Of a stretch of DNA of 60,767 bases, positions 2,289 to 54,735 are shown piece after piece. How positions within the stretch are numbered: the stretch's first letter is position 1; every line of letters starts with the position of its first letter. The stretch comes from a virus (taxonomy: Duplodnaviria > Caudoviricetes). A model generated the notes under the pieces. That model saw nothing but the letters and a program-made list of their open reading frames with translations. It did not search any database and was not told the DNA's origin. The position numbers and the translations under genes were made by a program. Location of the stretch: positions 1 through 60,767 of the IMG/VR virus record IMGVR_UViG_3300033993_001964. One strand, 5' to 3'.

Positions 2289-2981
2289 CTAGGCAGGAAC
2301 GGGCTGCTTTTTCCGTGCGGCTGCAGACTTGTTGGCGTCGTCGGCCATGCTCGCCAGGTCTTCGTAGGCAGACTTGCGAACAGTGCCGGACTTCACGTGC
2401 TCAGCCACCCGATCGAGGATCGCCTTGCGCCGCTCAGGGTCGGCTGCGTCGTTCAGGCTCTTGATGGCCATGTCAACGATCCGCTTCTCGCCAGATGCAG
2501 CCTGCTCTTTGGCCAGCTCCTCTGCTGTCGTGCCATCGTCGTCGTCGTCGGCAGCCAGACCGACCAGCGCACAGTAGGCGGCACGACGTGCGTACGTGAT
2601 CGCCGCCGCCAGCCTCTGAGGATCGGCGGTCGAGGCCTTGATGGGCAGGTTGCTGTCGATGAACTCTCCGCTGCTGTGCAGAAGCTGCGTGCACAGGACG
2701 ATGTCGCCGTCCGTGTTGTTCGTCAGCGTCTGGACAACGACCAGCCCATGCTCGGCGAGCGCTCGGCTTGCCGCCTTGTGGCATTGGGCAAGGTCGGCGT
2801 AGTCCTTGACTGGCTTGCCGTCCGGTCCCTTCTTGGCGAAGTGGCTGGACCTGTTGCGAACCAGCGGCTCCATGTTGGGGATGGACTTCGCCAGAGCCTC
2901 AGCAAGCTTGGCCGTGCCCATCGGGCAGCGGTCCATGAGGGTGTAGATCTTCTTCTGCGGATACATCGTTCCTTCGATCAT
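2289..2981 (-). CDS. erf: ERF-family single-strand DNA annealing protein
   Basis: YADLA, LAEHGLVVVQ, TQLLHSSGEFI, DPQRLAAAITYARRAAYCALVGLAADDDDDG signature. Confidence 0.9.
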   Translation of the reverse strand: MIEGTMYPQKKIYTLMDRCPMGTAKLAEALAKSIPNMEPLVRNRSSHFAKKGPDGKPVKDYADLAQCHKAASRALAEHGLVVVQTLTNNTDGDIVLCTQLLHSSGEFIDSNLPIKASTADPQRLAAAITYARRAAYCALVGLAADDDDDGTTAEELAKEQAASGEKRIVDMAIKSLNDAADPERRKAILDRVAEHVKSGTVRKSAYEDLASMADDANKSAAARKKQPVPA

Positions 2982-3883
2982 GACATTCTCCTGATGTGTG
3001 CCGGGACTGGCAGTTCAACGACCTCGCCGTGCTGGTCCGGCATCCAGTAGTCGAGGTCCATGCGGATCCGTATGTCCGCGAGAGAAGCCATTAGGCGTCG
3101 TCGTCCATCGGAGACGAGGTCCAGTGGCAAAGTCACAACGTGGCACTGATGCGGCCACACTGTGCTGACAACAACAAAGTTCAGCGGTCGGGGATCCATC
3201 CCCAGCGCTTCCATGCCCCACTGGTAATGCGCATCCTGCGCGTGGTAGCCGTACGTAACGACGGACTTCCAGAAGGAGTCGAGGATGTCTGCTTCTTTGG
3301 TGGTCTTGAGATCCACCCACGCAGACTGAGAGATGAGGTCGGGCCGGCACCTGAGCAGCTGTCCATCTGGGCCTTCCCAGCGGACGCTGACCTCGTGGGC
3401 CACCGCTTCCTCGATGAGCTTCCGGGCAGCCCGGTGCTCCATGACGGCGTCGATCTCACGCCGGAGCTGCTTGATCTCCTTGCCGGAAACCAGCTCCATG
3501 CCGGGTGCGTTCTCGAGGGCCCATTGCTGGGCCTTTTTCCCGACCTGCCCCGTTTCCGTCAGAGTGTCCTCTGGCGGGGCGACCAGCTCCTCGAAGAGCC
3601 GTTCGCCTACCTCCAGCCACCTGTGCAGCCGGGTTCCATGCGCTAGGGCGGCCGACTCTTCCGACTGTATGGACCGGGCAACATGGCGAAGGTAGAAATA
3701 CCTAGCACCCCGCGAGGCGTGATCCCAGAGCTGGGACTTCGACCATCCTGCGGAGGCGTGATAGGCCGAGTTGGCCTCACCCTCCGCAGCGGATGGGAGT
3801 TCCGGGAATGGGCGATACTGGGCTCGAACCAGTGACCCCCAGCTTGTCGAGCTGGGGGTAGACAACGCCTGATCGCGGGGCAT
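2978..3883 (-). CDS. Exonuclease VIII-like PD-(D/E)XK nuclease (DUF3799-like); start uncertain (ATG 3883 or 3907)
   Basis: NSAYHA..SKSQL, ALAHGTRLH, LRCRPD, DLKTT, YGYHAQDAHY; sits directly upstream of ERF as in RecET-like pairs. Confidence 0.85.
   Translation of the reverse strand: MPRDQALSTPSSTSWGSLVRAQYRPFPELPSAAEGEANSAYHASAGWSKSQLWDHASRGARYFYLRHVARSIQSEESAALAHGTRLHRWLEVGERLFEELVAPPEDTLTETGQVGKKAQQWALENAPGMELVSGKEIKQLRREIDAVMEHRAARKLIEEAVAHEVSVRWEGPDGQLLRCRPDLISQSAWVDLKTTKEADILDSFWKSVVTYGYHAQDAHYQWGMEALGMDPRPLNFVVVSTVWPHQCHVVTLPLDLVSDGRRRLMASLADIRIRMDLDYWMPDQHGEVVELPVPAHIRRMS
3809..3855 (-). mobile_element. attP core: 3' half of tRNA-Val(GAC)
   Basis: Minus strand CCAGC-TCGACAA-GCTGG (anticodon arm, GAC), GGGTC, ACTGG-TTCGAGC-CCAGT (T arm), ATCGCCCA (acceptor 3' strand); D arm and 5' acceptor strand absent; about 50 bp upstream of a tyrosine integrase. 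Confidence 0.85.
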
Positions 3884-3886
3884 ACT
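3859..3886 (+). promoter_or_regulatory. Possible sigma70-type promoter for the integrase
   Basis: TAGACA-N16-CATACT followed by AAGGGGG RBS-like sequence and ATG 3906. Confidence 0.35.
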
Positions 3887-3905
3887 GCCTATTAAGGGGG
3901 TTGTC

Positions 3906-4715
3906 ATGTCACCGAAGTCTCTGGTGTTGGAATACCTGGACGGCCGCGAGTGCCATCCTGAGTACCGCCGGGCGATGATTGCTCTGGCAAGTCGGCTGTC
4001 CGACCTGACCGCAGCAGCAGTCAACGCGCATCTCCGTATGCGTGCAGAATCCTGTTCGGCAACCACCGTCGCCAATGAGCGGCGGATGGTGCTTACCTTG
4101 TGGCGATGGGCTTGGGAGGAAGGCCGGATCGACTCGGCGCCGCGAGGCGTCATGAAGATCAAGAACCACCAGAAGCCCGTTCGTGCCTGGACTATCGCCG
4201 AGTGCCGCGAACTCGTCAAGGGGTCGGAAAAGTTTTTTGGCCAGCGACTTCGCAACGGAGCAGACGTTGGCAAGTTTTTGCAGTGCTGGGTGCTGCTTGC
4301 CTACGAGACGGGAGCCCGCTACGGCGACGTGTTTGCATGGAAGAAGGGGAACTTTGCGGGGTCTACGGTGAGTTGGGTTACGTCCAAGACGGGAGTGCCG
4401 TGCACGCGAGTGGTCTCGCCCAAAGCAATGGAACTGGTCGCGGACATGCTGAACGCCAGCCCGGACGATCGAGTGCTGGGCTGGGCGTGCTGCCGTCGCC
4501 AGTCGTTCCGTCTTATGCGCAAGCTAATAGCCTCCTGCCTGCCTGGCGGCAGCGGTAGGTGGCTTCGGAGGTCAGCCGCCACCCATCTGGAACTTAATCA
4601 GCCCGGAAAGGCGCAATGGTTCCTAGCACACAAGACAGCAGGATTGGCGGCCAGGCACTACCTGGACCAGTCCCAGCTGGTATCGGAAACCCTCAAGCCT
4701 CCGAGCATCTACTGA
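3906..4715 (+). CDS. int: Tyrosine recombinase / phage integrase
   Basis: LAYETGARYGDV (box I R), SKTG (K), RWLRRSAAT (variant HxxR), LAHKT (H), RHYLD (catalytic Y); adjacent attP. Confidence 0.85.
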   Translation: MSPKSLVLEYLDGRECHPEYRRAMIALASRLSDLTAAAVNAHLRMRAESCSATTVANERRMVLTLWRWAWEEGRIDSAPRGVMKIKNHQKPVRAWTIAECRELVKGSEKFFGQRLRNGADVGKFLQCWVLLAYETGARYGDVFAWKKGNFAGSTVSWVTSKTGVPCTRVVSPKAMELVADMLNASPDDRVLGWACCRRQSFRLMRKLIASCLPGGSGRWLRRSAATHLELNQPGKAQWFLAHKTAGLAARHYLDQSQLVSETLKPPSIY

Positions 4716-7700
4716 ACAACGAATGGGTTGCCGCCAAATACTCCGGGCCCAGCGCCTGCCTTCTTTCCATCACGGCGGGCCTTCTGGATCTCGGAGCGCT
4801 TTTGGCGCGCCAACTCAAATGCGTCCAGAGCGTTCTTCGGCACCATCGCGCGTTGACTCTCCGGGATGTACGGAATCGAAACGTCCTTCGTGTACGGAGC
4901 CGCAAGCTCCTGGAGCCGCTTGATCTGGTCTTCGGCGATGCGGTCCTTTGACATCGCACGGAAGCGACCGAGACCCATTTGGTTGAACGTCGTGTCGAAT
5001 GCACGAGAGCCGAACGAGCGATCCTCGTCGTTGCCGATCAAGCTGGCGGCAAGCCTGGCCGGCTGCGAAGCAAAAGGGATCAGATCAATAGCGCGGTCAA
5101 GGCCAGCAGGGATTCTCCCGGTGCCCGCATCAGGACCAGCAACAGCTCTGGCAATCTTGCTGTACGGTCCGTAGCCTTTGGCAAGGTGGCCGATCGGTTC
5201 CTTAGTAAAGGCGTCTTGACCAGTGAGCAACTCGCCGCCGACGCGAATCAGCGGCGACATGCCCTGCAATACGTTGCCGAGCGTGTTGCTAGCGGACGAC
5301 GGGTCAAACATCTGCAGCTGGTCGTAGCCAGGCAAGTCCACGTCAGTGAAGTAGCGCGTGTAGTTGGGGTCGTCGCTACCCAAGAAAGGCATGTTGTCCG
5401 GGATCGGAACTGCAAACTGCGACCGAAGCTGCTCAGGGATGTACGGCTCGTCGTCAGTTGGGTTCTGCAGGTTCTCGTACACCCGCAGGCCCTGTCCGTA
5501 CCGCCCGCCCGGCCGCTCAAGCAGCTGCCGACCAGCCTCAGCTGTGATGCGTGACGTGTACGCGTAGAACGGCATGAAGGAATCGCGGAACTGCTTTTCG
5601 ACAGTGGTCAGAGAGTCGTAGTCGACGTGCGCGCGTTTCATGCGGCGAGCTGCTTCCTCTGGCGATATGCCCTGAAGCAGCAGGGAGTTGTAGCCTGTTA
5701 GTCGGTTAATCGTGTCCGACAGGTTTCCAGCCCGGCCGCCGGCAGCGGCGATCGGATTCTTGTCCAGGTTCATGAAGTTGGCCCAGTTGTCCGCCTTGAA
5801 AAGCGGCGAAGCAGCGTCGGACCAACTCATTGGATTGACGCCTGGCATCAGCTCCGTCATCGGCGTGCCTGCCGACTCCAGACCTACGTCGCGTAGGTAT
5901 CCTCCGCCCAGCAATCCTTCTGCTGCGAGGTCAGAGTAATACCGCGCGGCCCTGTCTGAGGCTGGGTAGCTGGAGTATCGCGGCATCTGCCCTAAGAACG
6001 CAACGAACTCAGGATCAAACGCAGACTTCTTGGCCAACTCTCTTGCTGTGACGTACGGCTTGCCAGAGAACAGATCAACGATGTGCCGCATTATCGGCAT
6101 GGCGCGCATGTCCAGCGCACCCTCAAGCCAGTTGGAGAACATGCCGCTGTAAAGGTCGCGCACTATGCGTCGCGGCATAGCAAGAACGCCGGCCTTCCAT
6201 CCCCGATTGAACCATCGCAAGGGCTTGAGCAATGTCTCAACGGACTCGGGCTTAGAAAACGCATCCTGAACCTTGAGCATCCGGTTGATGTCATCTTCCG
6301 GAACAGAGTATTTGGCTAGCTCAATCTTGTCTGCCTGTTCGCCGGTGACCTCAGCCAGCCGGCGGCGCATCTGCTGGCGTGCGCCCTCTTCTCCGAGCTC
6401 GCCCTGCACGGTGCGAGCGCCGAATCTCTTGAGGGCCTCGCTGAGCGGAATGCTCTTGCCGCCTTCTACAAAAGGTGCGGGCGTGGGCTTGGCAATGGCG
6501 GCGATCGAGTCGTAGATCGACTTCTGCACGGCGCCTGCGCCAGCACGCCCGGACACGTAGTCCATGACCGTCTTGGTGGGATGCTGAGCGTACAGCTGGG
6601 TCGGACCTGCCGCCGTCTCTGGCAGCAGATGCAGGAGTCTGGCTAGCTGAAGCCCTTGCTTCTTGCCTTCGTCGGTGACTTCGCCGTACAGCTTCTCGGC
6701 GATGTGAATGGCAGCAGCGTCGTCGGTAGTTGCCGTACGCTTCGGGCCAGCCACGACAGGGTCAAGGCTAAGGTCAAAAGCAATCGTGTCTCGACCGCCC
6801 GGAACCTTAAGTGCGTCAGTGCGCGCCATCTGGTCTGGCGTCATGGTGCCAAGCACGCGCCCCAGAGAAGACGACGATCCCTGCTCACGACCAAGCACCC
6901 CATCCAGGCGGCGCGGCAGGTAGCCAGCCACATTCGGGTCATCCAGCGTGCCGCCATTCAGGCCGAGCTCGCGGAACTCTGGCGGCAACTCTGCGGCCTT
7001 CTCGTCCCACCAGTTCAGGTAGTTGCGAATCGCAGGGCTGCTGTCCGCTTTAGCGGCGTCGGCAGCTGCGTTCGGGTTCTCAAGAGGCTTGTCCATTAGG
7101 CGGCCAAGCGTGCGGTTGCCCTCTTCTGAGAAGACCTCTGGCGCACCCTGATACAGCTTGGAGGCCTGGTAGACAGCCTCCCTCCTGGCTTCTTTCTGGG
7201 CGGCCTTTCGTGCGTCGTCTGCCCCAGCAAACGCCGCCTGCTGCGCTGCGTCAGTGCCGCCGCCAACAGCGTTGTTGGTAAGAGACGCAAGCACTCGGCC
7301 AGGTCCGGACCAGCGAGCGATGTCGTCCACCTTGTCCATCGCGTCGGTGTACATATCGCCGACGAACGGGATGTTGAACGTGGCTCGAGCATCGTGCATG
7401 AACGACGGCGCCAGGCCAACATCCCCACCGAGACGCTGGGTGCGGAGTACGTCGTACTGGCCCTCGATGCCCTGCTTGCGCAGCCAGTCCCGGACCGACC
7501 TCTGCGCCTCCTCCGGATTGGGCGCGTAGTCGATCAGGTTGCCAAGCGTCCCGTACTTGCGTGCCGCACGGCGCCCGACGAGCGGTCGGCCCACCACGTC
7601 CGTCTCGCTCAGCGTCTCACGGCCCAGCTTCTGACCCAGCTTGGTGGCGTAGGCCGTAGCCCGCTCCGTGAGCTCGGGCGCCAGGTCTTCGGCGGAGTTG

Positions 7701-8149
7701 ACGAACGCACGAGACAGCGTTTGCGGCGCGCTCTTGAGCAGGCCGGCTGCGTCCGCCGCTCTTCCTGCCGTGCCAAGCGCACGTATGGCGCCAGTGGCGT
7801 AGTTCAAGGGGTCGGTGAGAATCTCAGCCCCGACGCCGGCGCTCCAGTTAGCCCAGTTGTCTTCGTCGCCAACGAGTCCGTGCTCACGCAGCAGCTCGCG
7901 ACCGGACGTGCGATCGTCCTCTGATGCGAACACCTCGCTCAGCCCCCTGCCCAGCCCGCCCGCCAGCGTGCCTCGAGCAAACGCGCCTGGCGTATCGAGC
8001 GCCCACAGCAGGCTGGACAGAGTGCCGCCTGTGGTGTCCTTCACGTAGCCCAGCAAGTCTTGCTCGGACTGTGGATCGACTACGTACTTCGGCTTAGTGC
8101 CAGTCGGTACGGCAAACGGATTAGGACCAAAGACGTCGACGCCAGCCAT
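4709..8149 (-). CDS. Large virion protein, probable internal/ejection protein
   Basis: 1146 aa, Ala/Gly-rich, last gene of a podovirus-type structural operon; C-terminal region (DYDSLT..EKQF..FMPFY) resembles large podoviral ejection proteins. Confidence 0.55.
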   Translation of the reverse strand: MAGVDVFGPNPFAVPTGTKPKYVVDPQSEQDLLGYVKDTTGGTLSSLLWALDTPGAFARGTLAGGLGRGLSEVFASEDDRTSGRELLREHGLVGDEDNWANWSAGVGAEILTDPLNYATGAIRALGTAGRAADAAGLLKSAPQTLSRAFVNSAEDLAPELTERATAYATKLGQKLGRETLSETDVVGRPLVGRRAARKYGTLGNLIDYAPNPEEAQRSVRDWLRKQGIEGQYDVLRTQRLGGDVGLAPSFMHDARATFNIPFVGDMYTDAMDKVDDIARWSGPGRVLASLTNNAVGGGTDAAQQAAFAGADDARKAAQKEARREAVYQASKLYQGAPEVFSEEGNRTLGRLMDKPLENPNAAADAAKADSSPAIRNYLNWWDEKAAELPPEFRELGLNGGTLDDPNVAGYLPRRLDGVLGREQGSSSSLGRVLGTMTPDQMARTDALKVPGGRDTIAFDLSLDPVVAGPKRTATTDDAAAIHIAEKLYGEVTDEGKKQGLQLARLLHLLPETAAGPTQLYAQHPTKTVMDYVSGRAGAGAVQKSIYDSIAAIAKPTPAPFVEGGKSIPLSEALKRFGARTVQGELGEEGARQQMRRRLAEVTGEQADKIELAKYSVPEDDINRMLKVQDAFSKPESVETLLKPLRWFNRGWKAGVLAMPRRIVRDLYSGMFSNWLEGALDMRAMPIMRHIVDLFSGKPYVTARELAKKSAFDPEFVAFLGQMPRYSSYPASDRAARYYSDLAAEGLLGGGYLRDVGLESAGTPMTELMPGVNPMSWSDAASPLFKADNWANFMNLDKNPIAAAGGRAGNLSDTINRLTGYNSLLLQGISPEEAARRMKRAHVDYDSLTTVEKQFRDSFMPFYAYTSRITAEAGRQLLERPGGRYGQGLRVYENLQNPTDDEPYIPEQLRSQFAVPIPDNMPFLGSDDPNYTRYFTDVDLPGYDQLQMFDPSSASNTLGNVLQGMSPLIRVGGELLTGQDAFTKEPIGHLAKGYGPYSKIARAVAGPDAGTGRIPAGLDRAIDLIPFASQPARLAASLIGNDEDRSFGSRAFDTTFNQMGLGRFRAMSKDRIAEDQIKRLQELAAPYTKDVSIPYIPESQRAMVPKNALDAFELARQKRSEIQKARRDGKKAGAGPGVFGGNPFVVQ

Positions 8150-48715: not shown

Positions 48716-48930
48716 GATACCGAGCCGGAGACAGGGTGACTTTGGTTGCGATGGGTGCTGACATTGACCCGGTCCCTTCGGGCTCTGAGGGGACGGTGAC
48801 TCACGTAACAGAACTGCAGTTCGCGGGCGAAGACCAGCTGCAGGTAGGCGTCCAGTGGGACAACGGCCGAAGCCTGTCGTGCATAGTCCCTCCGGACGTC
48901 CTTGTTCGGACAGATCCATACGCCCCCTGA
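48712..48930 (+). CDS. DUF4314-like protein
   Basis: GDRVTLVAM..D.DPVPSGSEGTV...VQWDNGRSL; stop lies inside motif copy 6. Confidence 0.75.
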   Translation: MRYRAGDRVTLVAMGADIDPVPSGSEGTVTHVTELQFAGEDQLQVGVQWDNGRSLSCIVPPDVLVRTDPYAP

Positions 48931-48956
48931 TTTCAGGGGCCGGCGATTACTAGTAG
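48923..48956 (+). repeat. Early cassette motif copy 6
   Basis: CCCCCTGATTTCAGGGGCCGGCGATTACTAGTAG. Confidence 0.9.
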
Positions 48957-49006
48957 AGGGCAGCGCGTGCTGCTCCGTTCTTTCAGTTTCTAACCAGGAG
49001 ATTTCT

Positions 49007-50119
49007 ATGGCCACTCATACGGCCAACGAGTCCTTGTTCATTGCATTGCAGGTCGTTCCGTCCATTGTGTGGGGCGGCACCGGCGTTGGTAAGACGACGG
49101 TCATCGGCCAGTTGGCGAAGGCGCTCAAGCGTAACTTCCACCTGCTGATTGGCTCGACTCACCTGCCTGAGGATTTCTCCGGTTACCCGGACGCTGACCG
49201 CGAGGCCGGCGTGATCCGCATGATGCCCACCTCGTGGGTGCAGGACTTCAAGGACGGGCTCGGGTTCCTGTTGCTTGACGAGTTCACGTGCGTGCCGCCG
49301 ACGACGATGGCTGCAGAGCTGTCGCTCATCACGGAACGACGCGTTGGTGACGTGACTCTGCCAGAGTCAACGATCATCGTGGCTGCTGCCAATCCTCCGG
49401 AGCTTGCTCCAGGTGGCAACGCACTGCCGCCGTCGATGCGCAGTCGGTTCTTCCATTACCGGTGGCAGGTCGACCGCAACGAGTTGTTCAAGGGTTATCG
49501 GGCTGGCCTTGAGTGGTCGGCTCCGTCGTTCCCGACAGTGCCCGCAGATCATCGCCAGCTGTATCCCAAGTACGGCGCGTTGGTCGAGGCGTTCCTGCGG
49601 TCGGCTCCCGACTGCATGGAGAAGCTGCCGGACAGCGACGAGTGCCTGAGCTTTCCTAACCCACGCACGTGGTCGTACGTGGTCAAGGTGCTCAGTGCTG
49701 CCGAGTCGGTCGGGCACCAGCCCGGCAGCGGCGTGTTCCGCGAGCTGATCACTGGCTGCGTTGGCGACGCTGCCGGCGGTGAGTTCATGCGGTACATGGC
49801 GACGCTGGATCTGGTCAACCCAGCTGCGATCCTCGATGGCAGCGAGAAGTTCAAGTACAAGCCCGGCCGCCCGGACCTGTGCATCTGCTTGCTCACTGGC
49901 CTGGTCAAGGAGCTCCGCTCCGACACCGACCAGGAGCGTTGGACGCGTGCCGCTCACGCGTTCATTGAGATCGGAGAGAACGAGATCGAGACGTTCCTCT
50001 CCCAGTTCAAGCCGCTCTGGGCGACCGTGTCTCAGGGTGGTGTTCGACCGGACGGATGGATGCCGGCTACTGGCCTCATGAACAAGCTAATGAAGCTCGT
50101 GCCGCAGGGCCTCAACTGA
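49007..50119 (+). CDS. MoxR-like AAA+ ATPase
   Basis: WGGTGVGKT Walker A, PEDFSGYP, LLLDE Walker B, AAANPP sensor 1, LPPSMRSRF, FPNPRTW; AGGAG RBS. Confidence 0.9.
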   Translation: MATHTANESLFIALQVVPSIVWGGTGVGKTTVIGQLAKALKRNFHLLIGSTHLPEDFSGYPDADREAGVIRMMPTSWVQDFKDGLGFLLLDEFTCVPPTTMAAELSLITERRVGDVTLPESTIIVAAANPPELAPGGNALPPSMRSRFFHYRWQVDRNELFKGYRAGLEWSAPSFPTVPADHRQLYPKYGALVEAFLRSAPDCMEKLPDSDECLSFPNPRTWSYVVKVLSAAESVGHQPGSGVFRELITGCVGDAAGGEFMRYMATLDLVNPAAILDGSEKFKYKPGRPDLCICLLTGLVKELRSDTDQERWTRAAHAFIEIGENEIETFLSQFKPLWATVSQGGVRPDGWMPATGLMNKLMKLVPQGLN

Positions 50120-50146
50120 TTCTTACTCTCACGAAAGGAGGTGGCC

Positions 50147-50515
50147 ATGGGCCACGACGTTAAGTGGATTGACGGTGGTGATCAGAAGGACTATCCGGGC
50201 GGCATCGCTCTCCGCAATGCGGACGATGCCAAGCAGATCCTTCTCCAGACCGTGCGGCAGATCTGTCCAGACTGCCCGCCGGGTGACTTCAACAGCCGTG
50301 CTCGCGTGCTTGCTCAGGCGATCACGATCCTGACGGCGACTGTCCTTCGCAGTGGCACGACCGCCATTGCCGAAGGCAGTGCCACTGTCGAGGAGATTGC
50401 AATGTCCAGTGCATACGCCACGCACATGCTGTGCCAGGCGGTGGCTGACTTGCTGACCCAAGACGTGGAGATCCTGGTTTCTGACCGACTCAACCCCGAG
50501 TTCTCATCGAACTAG
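50147..50515 (+). CDS. Hypothetical protein between AAA and VWA genes
   Basis: AGGAGGT RBS, ATG 50147. Confidence 0.7.
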   Translation: MGHDVKWIDGGDQKDYPGGIALRNADDAKQILLQTVRQICPDCPPGDFNSRARVLAQAITILTATVLRSGTTAIAEGSATVEEIAMSSAYATHMLCQAVADLLTQDVEILVSDRLNPEFSSN

Positions 50516-50525
50516 AGAGGAGCCG

Positions 50526-51890
50526 ATGACACCAAGAGACAAGCTGGCTCAGGGCCGGGTGCGTACTTTCGAGTACGCCCCCTACCTGGCCAGCTACATC
50601 TATTCGCTCAAGCAGCAGGAGACGCCAGGCTCTGGCACCTGCGGCGTGACGAAGGACGGGATCCTTTGCTGGGATCCCAAGTTTGTTGACAGCCTCGATC
50701 GGGACTCACTTGCTTACGTGATCCTGCACGAGGCTTTGCATCTCATCTTCCGCCACCACGTGCGGGCCGGTGAGGTGTACGGCGAGACGCCTGACCCCCA
50801 GTTGCAGCTTGCGATGAACATCGCCGGCGACCTGGTGATCGAGCAGACGCTGGGTTTCATGCGGCCACTGCGTCCGCCTGGAGCTGTGTATCTGGGGGCG
50901 CCGTGCCCTCAGTTAGGTATCGAACTCAACTTCCCGCCCAACCTGGACATGCTCCAGTACTACGGGCTCATCACCTCAGCGTTACGCGACAGGCCCAAGC
51001 GGCCGGGTGGTAGTCCAGGCGACGAGCAGGAAGACGAGAAGGATGGCAGTGACGAGGGCGATGGGGTCGGCAACAGCCGGGTCCAGAACAAGTCACCTCA
51101 AAAGCAGGGCGGCAAGAAGGGCTCATCCAACCAGCCCAACGGCCGTTCTGCTGCGTGCCAACCCGGATCGGGTGGCAGTGCAGGTGACGGGGTACGACGC
51201 CCGTACGAAGCGGAAGACGAATCTTGGCAGGCCTTCCAGGAGCTGGTGAATGCCGGCAACCTAGAACAAGCCATCGCCAAGCACGAGGCTCAGCATCCAG
51301 GCAGTGTTCCCGGCTTCATCAAGGAGCAGATCAGACACTTCCTCAGACCACAGCCCGATCCGTTCGAGCACCTACGCAGTGTCGTGGCAAGCGCCACTGC
51401 TAGTCCGCTCGGCGGGAGGGCGGCTTCGTACCGCAGGCTGTCGCGTAAGCAGCCAGCGGACATCGCCAGACTGCGTGGCCTGCTTTCAACGCAGGCTTCA
51501 GCAGTTGTGATCGTGGATACGAGCGGGTCGATGGGTGATCGGGAGACAAAGGAGAAGGCACTTGAGGTAGTGGCGAAAGGACTACGCAAGCTCAAGTCCG
51601 TCAAGGTTGTCTGTGCCGACACCAGGATCACCAGTTCGCAGCGACTCACAAGCGTTGCGAACTTCGAGTGGACGGGCGGCGGCGGCACCGACATGGCCGC
51701 AGCCCTCGAGGAAGTTGACCGGACCGACAGACCAGACAGCATCGTGCTCATCACTGACGCGATGACTGGCTGGCCTGCTCGGCAGACGCGGGCCAGGGTG
51801 GTCGTTGCCCTCACCTGCGACAGCTGCTACCGCGAGAGTATCCCTCGCTGGTGCAAGACAGTTCCCCTTTACCAAAGGAGCGACGCATGA
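50526..51890 (+). CDS. DUF2201-like metallopeptidase plus VWA domain protein
   Basis: ILHEALH (HExxH), NIAGDLVI, disordered linker, VIVDTSGSM MIDAS, GGGGTDM, LITD. Confidence 0.9.
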   Translation: MTPRDKLAQGRVRTFEYAPYLASYIYSLKQQETPGSGTCGVTKDGILCWDPKFVDSLDRDSLAYVILHEALHLIFRHHVRAGEVYGETPDPQLQLAMNIAGDLVIEQTLGFMRPLRPPGAVYLGAPCPQLGIELNFPPNLDMLQYYGLITSALRDRPKRPGGSPGDEQEDEKDGSDEGDGVGNSRVQNKSPQKQGGKKGSSNQPNGRSAACQPGSGGSAGDGVRRPYEAEDESWQAFQELVNAGNLEQAIAKHEAQHPGSVPGFIKEQIRHFLRPQPDPFEHLRSVVASATASPLGGRAASYRRLSRKQPADIARLRGLLSTQASAVVIVDTSGSMGDRETKEKALEVVAKGLRKLKSVKVVCADTRITSSQRLTSVANFEWTGGGGTDMAAALEEVDRTDRPDSIVLITDAMTGWPARQTRARVVVALTCDSCYRESIPRWCKTVPLYQRSDA

Positions 51891-53304: not shown

Positions 53305-53550
53305 GTGAAAGTTATTGTCCACATCCGAAAGGCAGTGGAGGTTGAGGTGCCTGACTGCCTGGTGCCCACGCGCCAGGACAGGTACAGCAACCACGCCATG
53401 CAAAGCTTTGCCATCGACTCGGCACTTGCCACGCTGCACGACAGCCACTGGGAAGAGCGTGAGGGATGGGGAGGCAGGAAGTACACCCAGCACGGTGCGT
53501 TGGGATACATCGAGTATCCGAAGAAGGACCTCACGTCCGGAGCAATCTGA
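53305..53550 (+). CDS. Hypothetical protein
   Basis: TAAGGAG RBS, GTG start, TGATG coupling to the recombinase. Confidence 0.65.
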   Translation: MKVIVHIRKAVEVEVPDCLVPTRQDRYSNHAMQSFAIDSALATLHDSHWEEREGWGGRKYTQHGALGYIEYPKKDLTSGAI

Positions 53551-54281
53551 TGGCCACCGTGTTTGGGTACGGCCGTCACTCCACCGACAAGCAGGGCCTC
53601 ACCGAAGAGGCTCAGCAGGTCAAGGTAGAGTCGTACATACGGTCCACCCTGCCGCACCTAGCGTACGGCGGGTGGCTGTATGACTCGGCCGTGAGTGGGA
53701 AGAAGCCTCTGTTCGAGAGGCCGAAAGGGCGGAACTTACTTGCGCTCGCACAGCCAGGAGATCACCTGGTGTGGGCCAAGCTAGACCGCGCCTTTCGTTC
53801 TGTTGTCGACGGCGCCAGCACTCTCGCAATGCTGGCACACAAGGGCGTGTACGTGCACAGTCTCGATCTGGGGCTGGACACAAGCACTGCCGTTGGCCGT
53901 TGCGTATGCACGGTCATGCTCGCATTCGCCGAGCTTGAACGTGAGTACGCAAGTGAGCGAACCCAAGAGGCGTTGGGTGCGAAGAAGCGAGCCGGCCTGC
54001 CCTATGGAGGGGGCGTCCCGATCGGATGGAAGAAGATCGGAAGGGGAAAGGACGGCCGGTTTGTTCCTGACCCAGTTGAACGTAGCCAGGCGATAGCCAT
54101 CGCCGAGATGAGGGCTGAAGGATCCAGCCAGGAAGACATAGTCACTGAGCTTCGTGGACTACGCCGGCCCTGCGGCCGGGAGTGGCACCGCGAGTCAGTG
54201 AGGAGAGCTATCCTGGCGGCAAGTCTTCAGTTCCCAAAAGCTGTGACAGAGTCCGAACTGCAATCTTTAGTCGCGACCTGA
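53550..54281 (+). CDS. Serine recombinase (resolvase/invertase family)
   Basis: VFGYGRHSTDKQ (catalytic Ser), DSAVSG, RP, GDHLVWAKLDRAFR, AFAELERE..SERT..AL, PIGW. Confidence 0.9.
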   Translation: MATVFGYGRHSTDKQGLTEEAQQVKVESYIRSTLPHLAYGGWLYDSAVSGKKPLFERPKGRNLLALAQPGDHLVWAKLDRAFRSVVDGASTLAMLAHKGVYVHSLDLGLDTSTAVGRCVCTVMLAFAELEREYASERTQEALGAKKRAGLPYGGGVPIGWKKIGRGKDGRFVPDPVERSQAIAIAEMRAEGSSQEDIVTELRGLRRPCGREWHRESVRRAILAASLQFPKAVTESELQSLVAT

Positions 54282-54735
54282 CCAGCTTCTCGTTCAGCTG
54301 AAACACTACGGCGATCTCACGGATCGACATCCCGTAGACATATCTGCTCGCAACCAACCGCCTCTCTGCGGCAGGCAATACGCTCAGGGCGGCCGGTAGC
54401 ATTTGGCTCCGGCCGCTCTGACGTTGCGCCATTCTTTCTGCGAGCTCGTACGGCACCCGGTCAGGGCTGTCGTACTTCAACCTCTGGCTTCGAGCCAGCT
54501 CTTTTAGCAACGCGTTCCTGATGGCCGACGAGAAGTAGGTAGTGATCTTGCTCTTCGTCTCGTCGTACGTCTGGGCTGCACGGCAGATCGCCATGTACGC
54601 CACTGACTGTCCGTCAATGCTACGCAGCTTCCGCTTGATTCCCGGATAGGACTTGCCCATAGCGTTGATGACTACCGGCACTATGGCCATAGCCTCTTCC
54701 GCTAACGCGCGCTCCCGATCCGTCATTGGCCGCAT
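54208..54735 (-). CDS. Phage-encoded sigma70-family RNA polymerase sigma factor
   Basis: Region 2 (AYMAICRAAQTYDETKSKITTYFSSAIRNALLKEL) and region 4 (ALSVLPAAERRLVASRYVYGMSIREIA...VRSRLKIAVRTL). Confidence 0.85.
   Translation of the reverse strand: MRPMTDRERALAEEAMAIVPVVINAMGKSYPGIKRKLRSIDGQSVAYMAICRAAQTYDETKSKITTYFSSAIRNALLKELARSQRLKYDSPDRVPYELAERMAQRQSGRSQMLPAALSVLPAAERRLVASRYVYGMSIREIAVVFQLNEKLVRSRLKIAVRTLSQLLGTEDLPPG

Follow-up and report, generated by a model that had tools for sequence, protein, structure and literature searches.

A putative tRNA-Val attP core inside the 5' extension of a phage RecE-like exonuclease gene

In the integration-dependent immunity of phages BPs, Brujita and Charlie, the attP core, a tRNA 3' end, is translated within the repressor gene (Broussard et al. 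2013, as treated in the relevant portion of PMC9262239), and for Tn916 the expression of transfer genes requires circularisation of the element (Celli and Trieu-Cuot 1998, in the excerpt given by PMC5812530). Burkholderia phage JC1 inserts into the host rimO gene at its 5' end (according to the part of PMC9144972 that describes the site), and tRNA-dependent lysogeny involves a tyrosine integrase, an attB that overlaps with a tRNA gene, and a core of ~10 bp (summary section of PMC10865867). Here, we examine a virus record of 60,767 bases (IMGVR_UViG_3300033993_001964; Duplodnaviria, Caudoviricetes), called the window throughout, in which a tRNA-Val fragment with the features of an attP core lies inside the open reading frame (ORF) of a RecE-like exonuclease gene, next to a divergent integrase gene.

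The record has a G+C content of 61.3%, is classed as linear and looks complete (99%), and closely similar copies of the window are seen in contigs from several lake-water metagenomes. The best explanation, which taken as a whole we consider fairly probable, is that the window represents a ~61-kb lake-water phage in its free (attP) form, with attP lying in a translated 5' extension of the exonuclease gene, such that integration would decapitate this gene and excision would restore it. Among the matches listed by literature searches that did not extend to subscription journals, none describes an att site within the gene of a recombination exonuclease, which does not prove that no such case exists.

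The exonuclease reading frame and the tRNA-Val fragment

The gene concerned lies on the minus strand (2978-3883) and encodes a RecE-like exonuclease of the DUF3799, PD-(D/E)XK type, 301 amino acids (aa) long when counted from a conserved Met-Pro-Arg/His start. Its frame is also open from an ATG at 3907 (309 aa), and the whole minus-strand ORF spans 2978-4273, reading ...MTTPLIGSMPRDQALSTPSSTSWGSLVRAQYRPFPELPSAAEGEANSAYHA... The assignment is supported by Pfam, PHROG and fold matches: DUF3799 (PF12684) scores 49.7 bits (cut-off 26), PDDEXK_1 (PF12705) scores 26.8 bits (cut-off 22), and phrog_412, exonuclease VIII, matches at 1.6e-45 from residue 43. The catalytic residues P181, D182, D191 and K193, which make up the PD...(D/E)XK motif, are invariant among the 17 sequences aligned. 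Furthermore, an AlphaFold2 model based on a 17-sequence alignment, with a mean predicted local distance difference test score (pLDDT) of 83, has E. coli RecE (3h4r) as its top PDB match in Foldseek (E 4.7e-12; template modelling score 0.74, target-normalised).

Within this ORF, and co-oriented with the exonuclease, lies a 47-nt stretch (3809-3855, minus strand) that corresponds to positions ~27-73 of a tRNA-Val(GAC) and reads in frame as (P)SSTSWGSLVRAQYRP; both the ORF and a codon-by-codon view bear out the preliminary description of this DNA, which had placed the fragment in the exonuclease frame. It comprises the anticodon arm with GAC, the variable loop, the T arm, the 3' strand of the acceptor stem and the discriminator A. 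On the window alone the tRNA call is weak: the Rfam tRNA model matches 3809-3855 at only 18.7 bits, below the gathering threshold of 29 (E 0.33), with its D arm deleted, and no full cloverleaf with 5' acceptor strand and D arm is called by ARAGORN anywhere in the window. The stretch is a 3' fragment, as an attP core should be.

The identity as tRNA-Val is backed by four further results. In relatives, ARAGORN calls tRNA-Val(gac) on the same stretch. The same 30 nt are found exactly in two unrelated viral contigs, L061 (2479-2508, minus) and L062 (5296-5325, plus), one of which has its own distant integrase ~900 nt from the Val fragment; both fragments carry the window-type T stem, and similarity to the window begins at about tRNA position 28-30. 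It seems, therefore, that several phage types target one host tRNA gene. Among contigs of four lake-metagenome sequencing runs, which were used for the depth and junction look-up on the window, foreign tRNA contigs pile onto the bin 3796-3859, with a summed depth of 332-1564 as against 5-9 beside it; the sequencing runs listed for this sequence included no RNA run. Finally, the T stem is ACTGG/CCAGT in the window and GCAGG/CCTGC in most relatives, the differences being compensatory pairs.

The fragment thus is a tRNA 3' part that runs to the discriminator, lies 50 nt from the integrase ATG and has the orientation that would rebuild the tRNA on integration, as expected of an attP core; this applies equally to the 31 distinct relatives with three tRNA types described below. 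The likely strand-exchange region is the anticodon loop, TCGACAA (3844-3850, minus), where tyrosine integrases that target tRNA genes would generally be expected to act, and the dyad symmetry of the anticodon stem around it is typical of core-type sites.

A linker of 45 nt (3764-3808, minus) separates the tRNA 3' end from the Y codon (3763) of a conserved YH motif. As had been claimed for this interval, a codon scan finds no in-frame ATG, GTG or TTG in it; manual codon reading finds no in-frame CTG, ATT, ATC or ATA either. Every in-frame start is located on the core's integrase side (3863-3907, minus): ATG 3907, ATG 3883, which has a weak Shine-Dalgarno (SD) sequence AGG, and TTG 3865. The two ATGs had been placed there before, and the TTG had gone unmentioned. 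ATG 3907 shares the plus-strand tetranucleotide CATG (3905-3908) with the integrase ATG at 3906, again as first described.

In the structural model, residues 1-22 have a pLDDT <50 and the confident fold starts at about residue 31; the 16 tRNA-derived codons together with the linker are predicted to form a disordered N-terminal tail. Comparison of homologue N-termini shows that proteins of cultured phages begin 3 (KBS-S-2A), 11 (KLEP18-1) or 21 (phiARM81mr) residues before YH, as against 40 here, and one E. coli phage homologue carries a long RecE-type N-terminus.

The divergent neighbour (3906-4715, plus), preceded by the SD sequence AAGGGGG at 3894-3900, encodes a 269-aa tyrosine recombinase. 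The protein matches the PHROG integrase family phrog_1 at 5.7e-15, and no Pfam family at E<=0.01; its profile matches the catalytic domain of lambda Int (1ae9) at 4.5e-5. R138, K161, R221, H242 and Y252 are invariant among 14 integrase sequences, the first His position being K/R218, and in the alignment to 1ae9 the catalytic residues fall on R212, K235, (H308), R311 and H333. These ordered catalytic residues, along with the phrog_1 and 1ae9 matches, indicate a small tyrosine recombinase that lacks an arm-binding domain. In the alignment of integrase C-termini, Int shows no evident ssrA-like tail.

Conservation of the frame through the core in relatives

By manual reading, none of the three forward frames of the window's tRNA fragment contains a stop. 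That the core is open is therefore no evidence by itself; the evidence comes from its flanks and from relatives. Protein-pattern scans yielded one locus in species-representative genomes (a phage contig in a metagenome-assembled genome, MAG), 20 viral-contig loci and 17 metagenome-contig loci; a core-pattern scan added two loci, and a further 35 and 21 came from scans that used two proteins of more distant relatedness. The integrase gene is upstream and divergent in 17/21 loci of the first set, the other four beginning at or inside the exonuclease, as well as in 12/17 metagenome loci (the other five have <=222 nt of upstream DNA) and 2/2 core-pattern loci. The pooled analysis leaves out L001, L023, L041, L057-L062 and the re-fetched contigs L042-L056; two of these, L045 and L050, had been removed by the filter and were analysed separately. 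Eight rows were dropped from it, five without the N-terminus in the locus and three without a recognisable YH. In this pooled set, 48 of the 54 distinct N-terminal regions have the integrase divergent upstream; of the remaining six, five lie within ~230 nt of a contig end and the sixth, L116, is a 25%-identity outlier without an integrase.

After collapsing identical sequences, and with L045/L050 included, 31 distinct tRNA-type N-terminal regions were obtained, 14 with a Val(GAC), 10 with a Met(CAT) and 7 with a His(GTG)-like core. The Val cores read as SSTSWGSQVR... in 13/14 cases, L014 being read one base over as LARQARGHRFESYIAH; the Met cores read as HRLHKPGVAGSSP and the His-like cores as QIVILGVAGSSPVSHP, the isotype of the latter coming from manual reading and Rfam giving no tRNA match on the His-like core of L098. 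The frame is thus kept through three kinds of tRNA core and in three reading frames: an ATG, GTG or TTG lies in frame upstream of the fragment, with no stop between, in 30 of the 31 regions, and the exception, L031, ends at the contig edge. No start is present between fragment and Y codon in 24/31 regions, the proximal start being absent in 10/10 Met, 6/7 His-like and 8/14 Val.

The linkers are especially informative. From the tRNA end to the Y codon they measure 42, 45 or 51 nt in the Val, 29, 32, 35 or 41 nt in the Met and 59, 68, 71 or 74 nt in the His-like type, so that variation within each core type is always a multiple of three, and at least eight independent length changes are all frame-preserving. 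In L014, which carries the same tRNA in the +1 frame, the shift is compensated by a linker of 46 nt. Synonymous changes are seen in the codons at the core edges (Leu TTG/CTG and Ala GCG/GCT/GCA after it, Leu TTG/CTT before it).

Upstream of the core, the MP[HR] start is in frame in 33/47 Val-type protein clusters, with spacers of ~6-17 residues. In-frame stops just upstream make this ATG the first start in L002, L007 and L009; in L012, L014 and L006 the corresponding codon is ATA or ATT, and there an ATG further upstream is open. Clear SD sequences precede an upstream ATG as GAGGAGG-N10-ATG in L045/L050 and as GGAGGTATTATG (SD GGAGG) in L026. Collectively, the frame-preserving linkers, the upstream starts and the compensated +1 shift indicate translation of the exonuclease through attP, and frame conservation with multiple-of-three indels is what an attP inside an ORF translated through its core, as in BPs, would show. 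Judging from these comparisons, the exonuclease is very likely made with a disordered tail encoded by attP, and a protein initiated upstream of the core would contain the peptide MPRDQALSTPSSTSWGSLVR...

The open frame is widespread. At E<=1e-20, 92 exonuclease protein clusters were found on contigs from many lake metagenomes and sorted by script and then by eye: 64 have the tRNA-derived peptide, 8 are fragments, 8 have short N-termini and in the other 12 the N-terminus is long but has no T arm. A gene call is no proof of translation; what these calls show is how far the open frame extends. In clusters P0100-P0106, Joint Genome Institute (JGI) gene calls are 213 and 149 aa for exonucleases that are otherwise 303-305 aa, some on long contigs. 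As a guess, these short calls may be an annotation artefact of an IMG-type pipeline that calls a pseudo-tRNA at attP and trims the coding sequence, a point that matters for annotation, as other gene callers read through the translated att core.

Two repeats were observed near this site in relatives. In the non-tRNA ('QAAC') relatives (L108, 2540-2620; L066, L071, L085, L092 and others), an inverted or repeated 15-mer, ACAAGCAGCATGTAG, replaces the tRNA fragment at the same spot inside the open exonuclease frame; this 15-bp repeat may be a non-tRNA att site or an operator. In the Met group, an inverted repeat lies between the integrase start and the core and includes the integrase SD (L016, 2300-2420; L015, L032-L035, L039), for instance CTCTCCC...GGGAGAG and CCTTCTCCC...GGGAGAAGG, and could be an operator or an SD-sequestering hairpin.

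Expected consequences of integration and alternative explanations

The exonuclease heads a minus-strand gene row that continues with an ERF-family annealing protein, a 117-aa ORF and a ResIII/DEAD helicase, and the integrase gene, on the plus strand, diverges from this operon. The ERF-family single-strand annealing protein (2289-2981, minus; Pfam ERF 52.4 bits) starts at ATG 2981, which overlaps the exonuclease stop (ATGA), and reading of the sequence gives it a strong SD of its own, AGGAGA, 6 nt before this ATG. The helicase (434-1951, minus; Pfam ResIII 74.4, DEAD 45.6 and Helicase_C 44.9 bits) lies downstream in the same operon.

In the proposed mechanism, Int would bring about recombination between the 3809-3855 core and the tRNA-Val gene of the host, with the crossover probably in the anticodon loop. 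The attL side would then consist of the 5' half of the host tRNA, the phage-derived 3' half, 45 nt and a start-less exonuclease body, followed by ERF and helicase; the SD, the start codons (ATG 3883, possibly 3907) and probably the promoter would be on the attR side, beside the integrase gene ~60 kb away. An intact exonuclease gene would exist only in the circular genome, after infection or excision, and production of the exonuclease, as well as transcription of the operon from its own promoter, would depend on excision. In lysogens, read-through from a strongly transcribed tRNA gene would not lead to translation of the exonuclease. Since the crossover would fall within the core, loss of the exonuclease start follows from topology, provided that integration occurs, and its use as a switch is a plausible hypothesis. 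As to the D arm of the host tRNA, a co-occurring tRNA-Val(TAC) contig, which is not the target tRNA, shows the usual GGTAGAGC sequence; by a manual reading of a loose contig end, such a D arm in the frame of the window would place a TAG (positions 20-22) three codons before the core.

Several observations weigh against this reading or narrow it. No prophage form, attB or host tRNA was found in any of the collections scanned (~95 loci), and every informative relative has the attP form, with 0 attL or attR junctions. The core pattern occurs in the MAG that holds L002 only on the phage contig itself, and is absent from 40 relatives of this MAG and from the other 130/131 genomes of the phylum. Pfam recognises no helix-turn-helix repressor among 20 ORFs between 40.9 and 55.2 kb. 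A TTG or GTG stands just after the core in 7/31 tRNA-type relatives, the called N-terminus is short in 8/92 clusters (for instance MEEGESN, MIRRGE), and 17/24 non-tRNA ('QAAC') relatives have a start <=51 nt from Y, so that initiation upstream is not universal in the exonuclease family. Lastly, since ERF has its own SD, the remaining operon genes would not necessarily fall silent if the exonuclease were decapitated. Accordingly, of what the preliminary description proposed, the anatomy behind a separation of the exonuclease start from its body is strongly backed by the comparative data, although the prophage form that was sought gave no junction; the decapitation would apply to the exonuclease, and silencing of the whole operon is made doubtful by the SD of ERF and by the relatives with a start after the core.

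Part of the missing junctions may lie in the assemblies. The attP form is physically bridged in run X7, and phage unitigs of runs X4 and X5 break inside the core at 3811/3840; likewise, the L008 contig starts 18 nt before the core and the L031 contig ends just before it. Such breaks are expected, since phage and bacterial tRNA sequences share words, and they may hide junction forms. Record 22 of run X6 has 117 unlike nt followed by 3809-4800 and could be attR or a diverged variant. In runs X17 and X20, which are labelled as one organism ('organism A'), 13-16% of the sampled words of 2978-4715 are present, which may reflect a related prophage or the tRNA only. 'Complete' tRNAs called by ARAGORN in L006, L012/13, L015-17, L028, L032-37 and L039 were considered as attL and rejected, the integrase gene being directly upstream in each. 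Near-complete cloverleafs with acceptor stems of 4-6/7 pairs are seen at L032 3911-3986, L035 1603-1678, L016 2420-2496, L006 5313-5382 and L012 6021-6093; these phages seem to carry decayed tRNA 5' halves too, possibly from imprecise excision.

A stronger form of the decapitation reading, for what is a large clade of lake phages, holds that the recombination and replication operon has been deliberately built across attP, its promoter and start codon beside int and its gene bodies beside the tRNA, as an excision-gated early operon that cannot fire from the prophage. From the sequence comparisons this appears possible but rather doubtful. If it were true, excision would precede replication and recombination, with no replication in situ, a nuclease gene behind a strongly transcribed tRNA would be shielded from read-through translation, and repeated loss of the proximal start in tRNA-type, not in non-tRNA, lineages would be the signature of selection.

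About equally tentative is the main alternative, that the overlap is merely tolerated: with int, attP and exo tightly packed, the original start of the exonuclease would have decayed and been replaced by one upstream, and the split would be non-adaptive, the N-terminal tail being irrelevant to the enzyme and the exonuclease being needed only after excision anyway. The tail is indeed predicted to be disordered and homologues do without it, the position of the start varies widely between lineages, some of which keep or regained a start adjacent to the domain, and ERF keeps its own SD. What hints at a link with the tRNA is that the proximal start is missing across three core types while most non-tRNA relatives have one. 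The frequency in the latter suggests that the ancestral start was probably beside the domain and that the upstream start is derived, and the contrast between 7/31 and 17/24 agrees with a proximal start being selected against where it would follow a tRNA gene; as the tRNA and non-tRNA groups are clades, however, this contrast rests on few independent events.

Less likely is that the tRNA fragment is no working attP at all. It might be a relic, or an RNA element that resembles a tRNA and acts, for instance, as a signal for RNase P/Z processing or for stability at the 5' end of the operon mRNA; the recombinase would then have a different role, for instance in resolving multimers of a plasmid prophage. 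The lack of a prophage among ~95 loci and of a recognised repressor would agree with this, as would the several relatives that keep near-complete cloverleafs with partly paired acceptor stems though the integrase gene is right upstream; acceptor stems of 4-6/7 pairs in ARAGORN calls, however, easily arise by chance in GC-rich DNA. Moreover, the fragments correspond to tRNA 3' halves as far as the discriminator and switch isotype between lineages (Val, Met, His-like), as would be expected if host genes were being tracked, unrelated phage contigs with an integrase of their own carry the same Val fragment, and the place beside a tyrosine integrase is the textbook position of attP.

The least likely alternative is that the core is an untranslated leader and the exonuclease starts downstream by an unconventional start, so that integration would remove at most a promoter: a TTG directly after the discriminator in L002, the L003 and L006 groups and L008, in L014 and L045 a TTG or GTG a few codons later, and an SD-like GGAGGGTGAGG within the window linker would suit it, but this linker has no in-frame ATG, GTG, TTG, CTG or ATH, L007 and L009 have CTG at the homologous Leu codon, and multiple-of-three indels and a compensated frameshift would make no sense.

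Candidate promoters, neighbouring genes and comparison with known systems

A consensus scan found two promoter-like sites, against 0.2 expected in shuffled sequence. TAGACA-16-CATACT (3859-3886, plus), a candidate P_int, lies in the 50-nt spacer, and its CAT is the complement of the exonuclease ATG 3883. TTGACG-17-GATAGT (4191-4219, minus), within integrase codons 96-105, points into the exonuclease operon and is the only site on that strand, making it a candidate P_exo. Its TTGAC is kept in 11/11 Val-group integrase genes, with an xAxxxT hexamer 17 nt on, by way of rare AGT/ACT codons, and synonymous-codon identity along the integrase gene peaks there (0.73 versus 0.465 overall). L007 has an equivalent site with 10/12 matches, and Met-group relatives have one promoter-like site each on the exonuclease strand, inside the integrase gene at other codons. 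These sequence features are no more than suggestive of P_exo as the operon promoter. If it is, P_int and P_exo would stand face to face with overlapping transcripts, and integration would also remove the operon promoter. A conserved TATTAT/CAGTAT before CCCC[AG]C was first taken as the exonuclease -10 box; an SD-plus-ATG interpretation was preferred in view of the L026 sequence given above and the in-frame conservation, and the element possibly doubles as the P_int -10 box on the other strand. The phage itself encodes a sigma-factor-like protein (54208-54735, minus; phrog_351/phrog_1740, E 8.9e-10), hence scans for host-type consensus promoters may not suit all phage operons.

Other genes were noted in the surroundings and further along the genome. 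A 1146-aa structural-type gene (4709-8149, minus) converges with the integrase gene (3906-4715, plus) with an overlap of 7 nt (4709-4715), which leaves no space for a terminator, so late minus-strand transcripts could run antisense through the integrase gene into the exonuclease operon. A second recombinase, a 271-aa small serine recombinase (53466-54281, plus; Pfam Resolvase 100.7 bits; phrog_95/phrog_125, integrase/DNA invertase), could be an invertase, a resolvase or an alternative integrase. At 48902-51890 (plus), a MoxR-like AAA ATPase (AAA_5) is followed by one small ORF and a DUF2201 metallopeptidase/VWA protein, a pair of uncertain role in a phage.

Compared with the BPs type, as outlined in PMC9262239, the present locus has in common an attP core within a phage gene whose product is altered by integration and a core-only tyrosine integrase without arm sites. 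The outline differs from it in that the repressor gene is co-transcribed with int and loses its 3' end, whereby a degradation tag is removed and the protein is activated. The exonuclease locus does not fit this scheme of a split repressor gene, co-transcribed with int, that loses a C-terminal tag: the gene encodes a RecE-like exonuclease, is divergent from int, would lose its 5' end with the SD, the start and probably the promoter, and should be switched off.

As in Tn916, in the portrayal excerpted from PMC5812530, genes at one end would be joined to a promoter from the far end only in the excised circle. That element, however, is a conjugative transposon whose transcripts, in the same excerpt, cross the joint without a coding sequence spanning it, whereas here the joint is inside an ORF and the promoter is a predicted one. 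JC1, in the passages of PMC9144972 on its site, likewise has att at a coding sequence's 5' end and obtains a start codon from the far side of the junction. It mirrors our locus, as the host gene is split, the phage supplies a replacement ATG that keeps this gene working and the enzyme is a serine recombinase. With tRNA-dependent lysogeny the locus shares a tyrosine integrase, a tRNA attB and unusual consequences of the position of the core, but there, in the summary of PMC10865867, the tRNA is left unrestored, for which a phage tRNA compensates. In our case the core is the whole 3' half, which should restore the tRNA, and no tRNA gene is present in the window.

The exonuclease shows the RecE fold and motifs, and the gene of a single-strand annealing protein comes next, as in RecE/RecT and ERF-type modules; unlike in RecE/RecT, the partner is of the ERF family, not RecT, and the protein has an N-terminal tail of 30-40 aa encoded by attP. 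In SSV1-type integrases and in Myxococcus phage Mx8 attP lies inside int, and lambda is subject to sib retroregulation. Here too integration would split a phage gene or change its context or that of its regulatory site, and expression would not be the same in the prophage as in the free genome; in these systems the integrase gene or its 3' regulatory site is affected, and not a recombination or replication gene.

Thus, attP within a gene is known for repressor (BPs) and integrase genes, and excision-gated expression for Tn916. A recombination or replication gene whose start is split off by integration would add a third logic, in which the act of recombination itself orders the events of induction, and would show that a phage can carry a tRNA-derived att core as coding sequence whichever of three frames is read. 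In our reading, the locus would combine two kinds of logic that are known separately, attP in a gene and gating by circularisation, at the start of an exonuclease.

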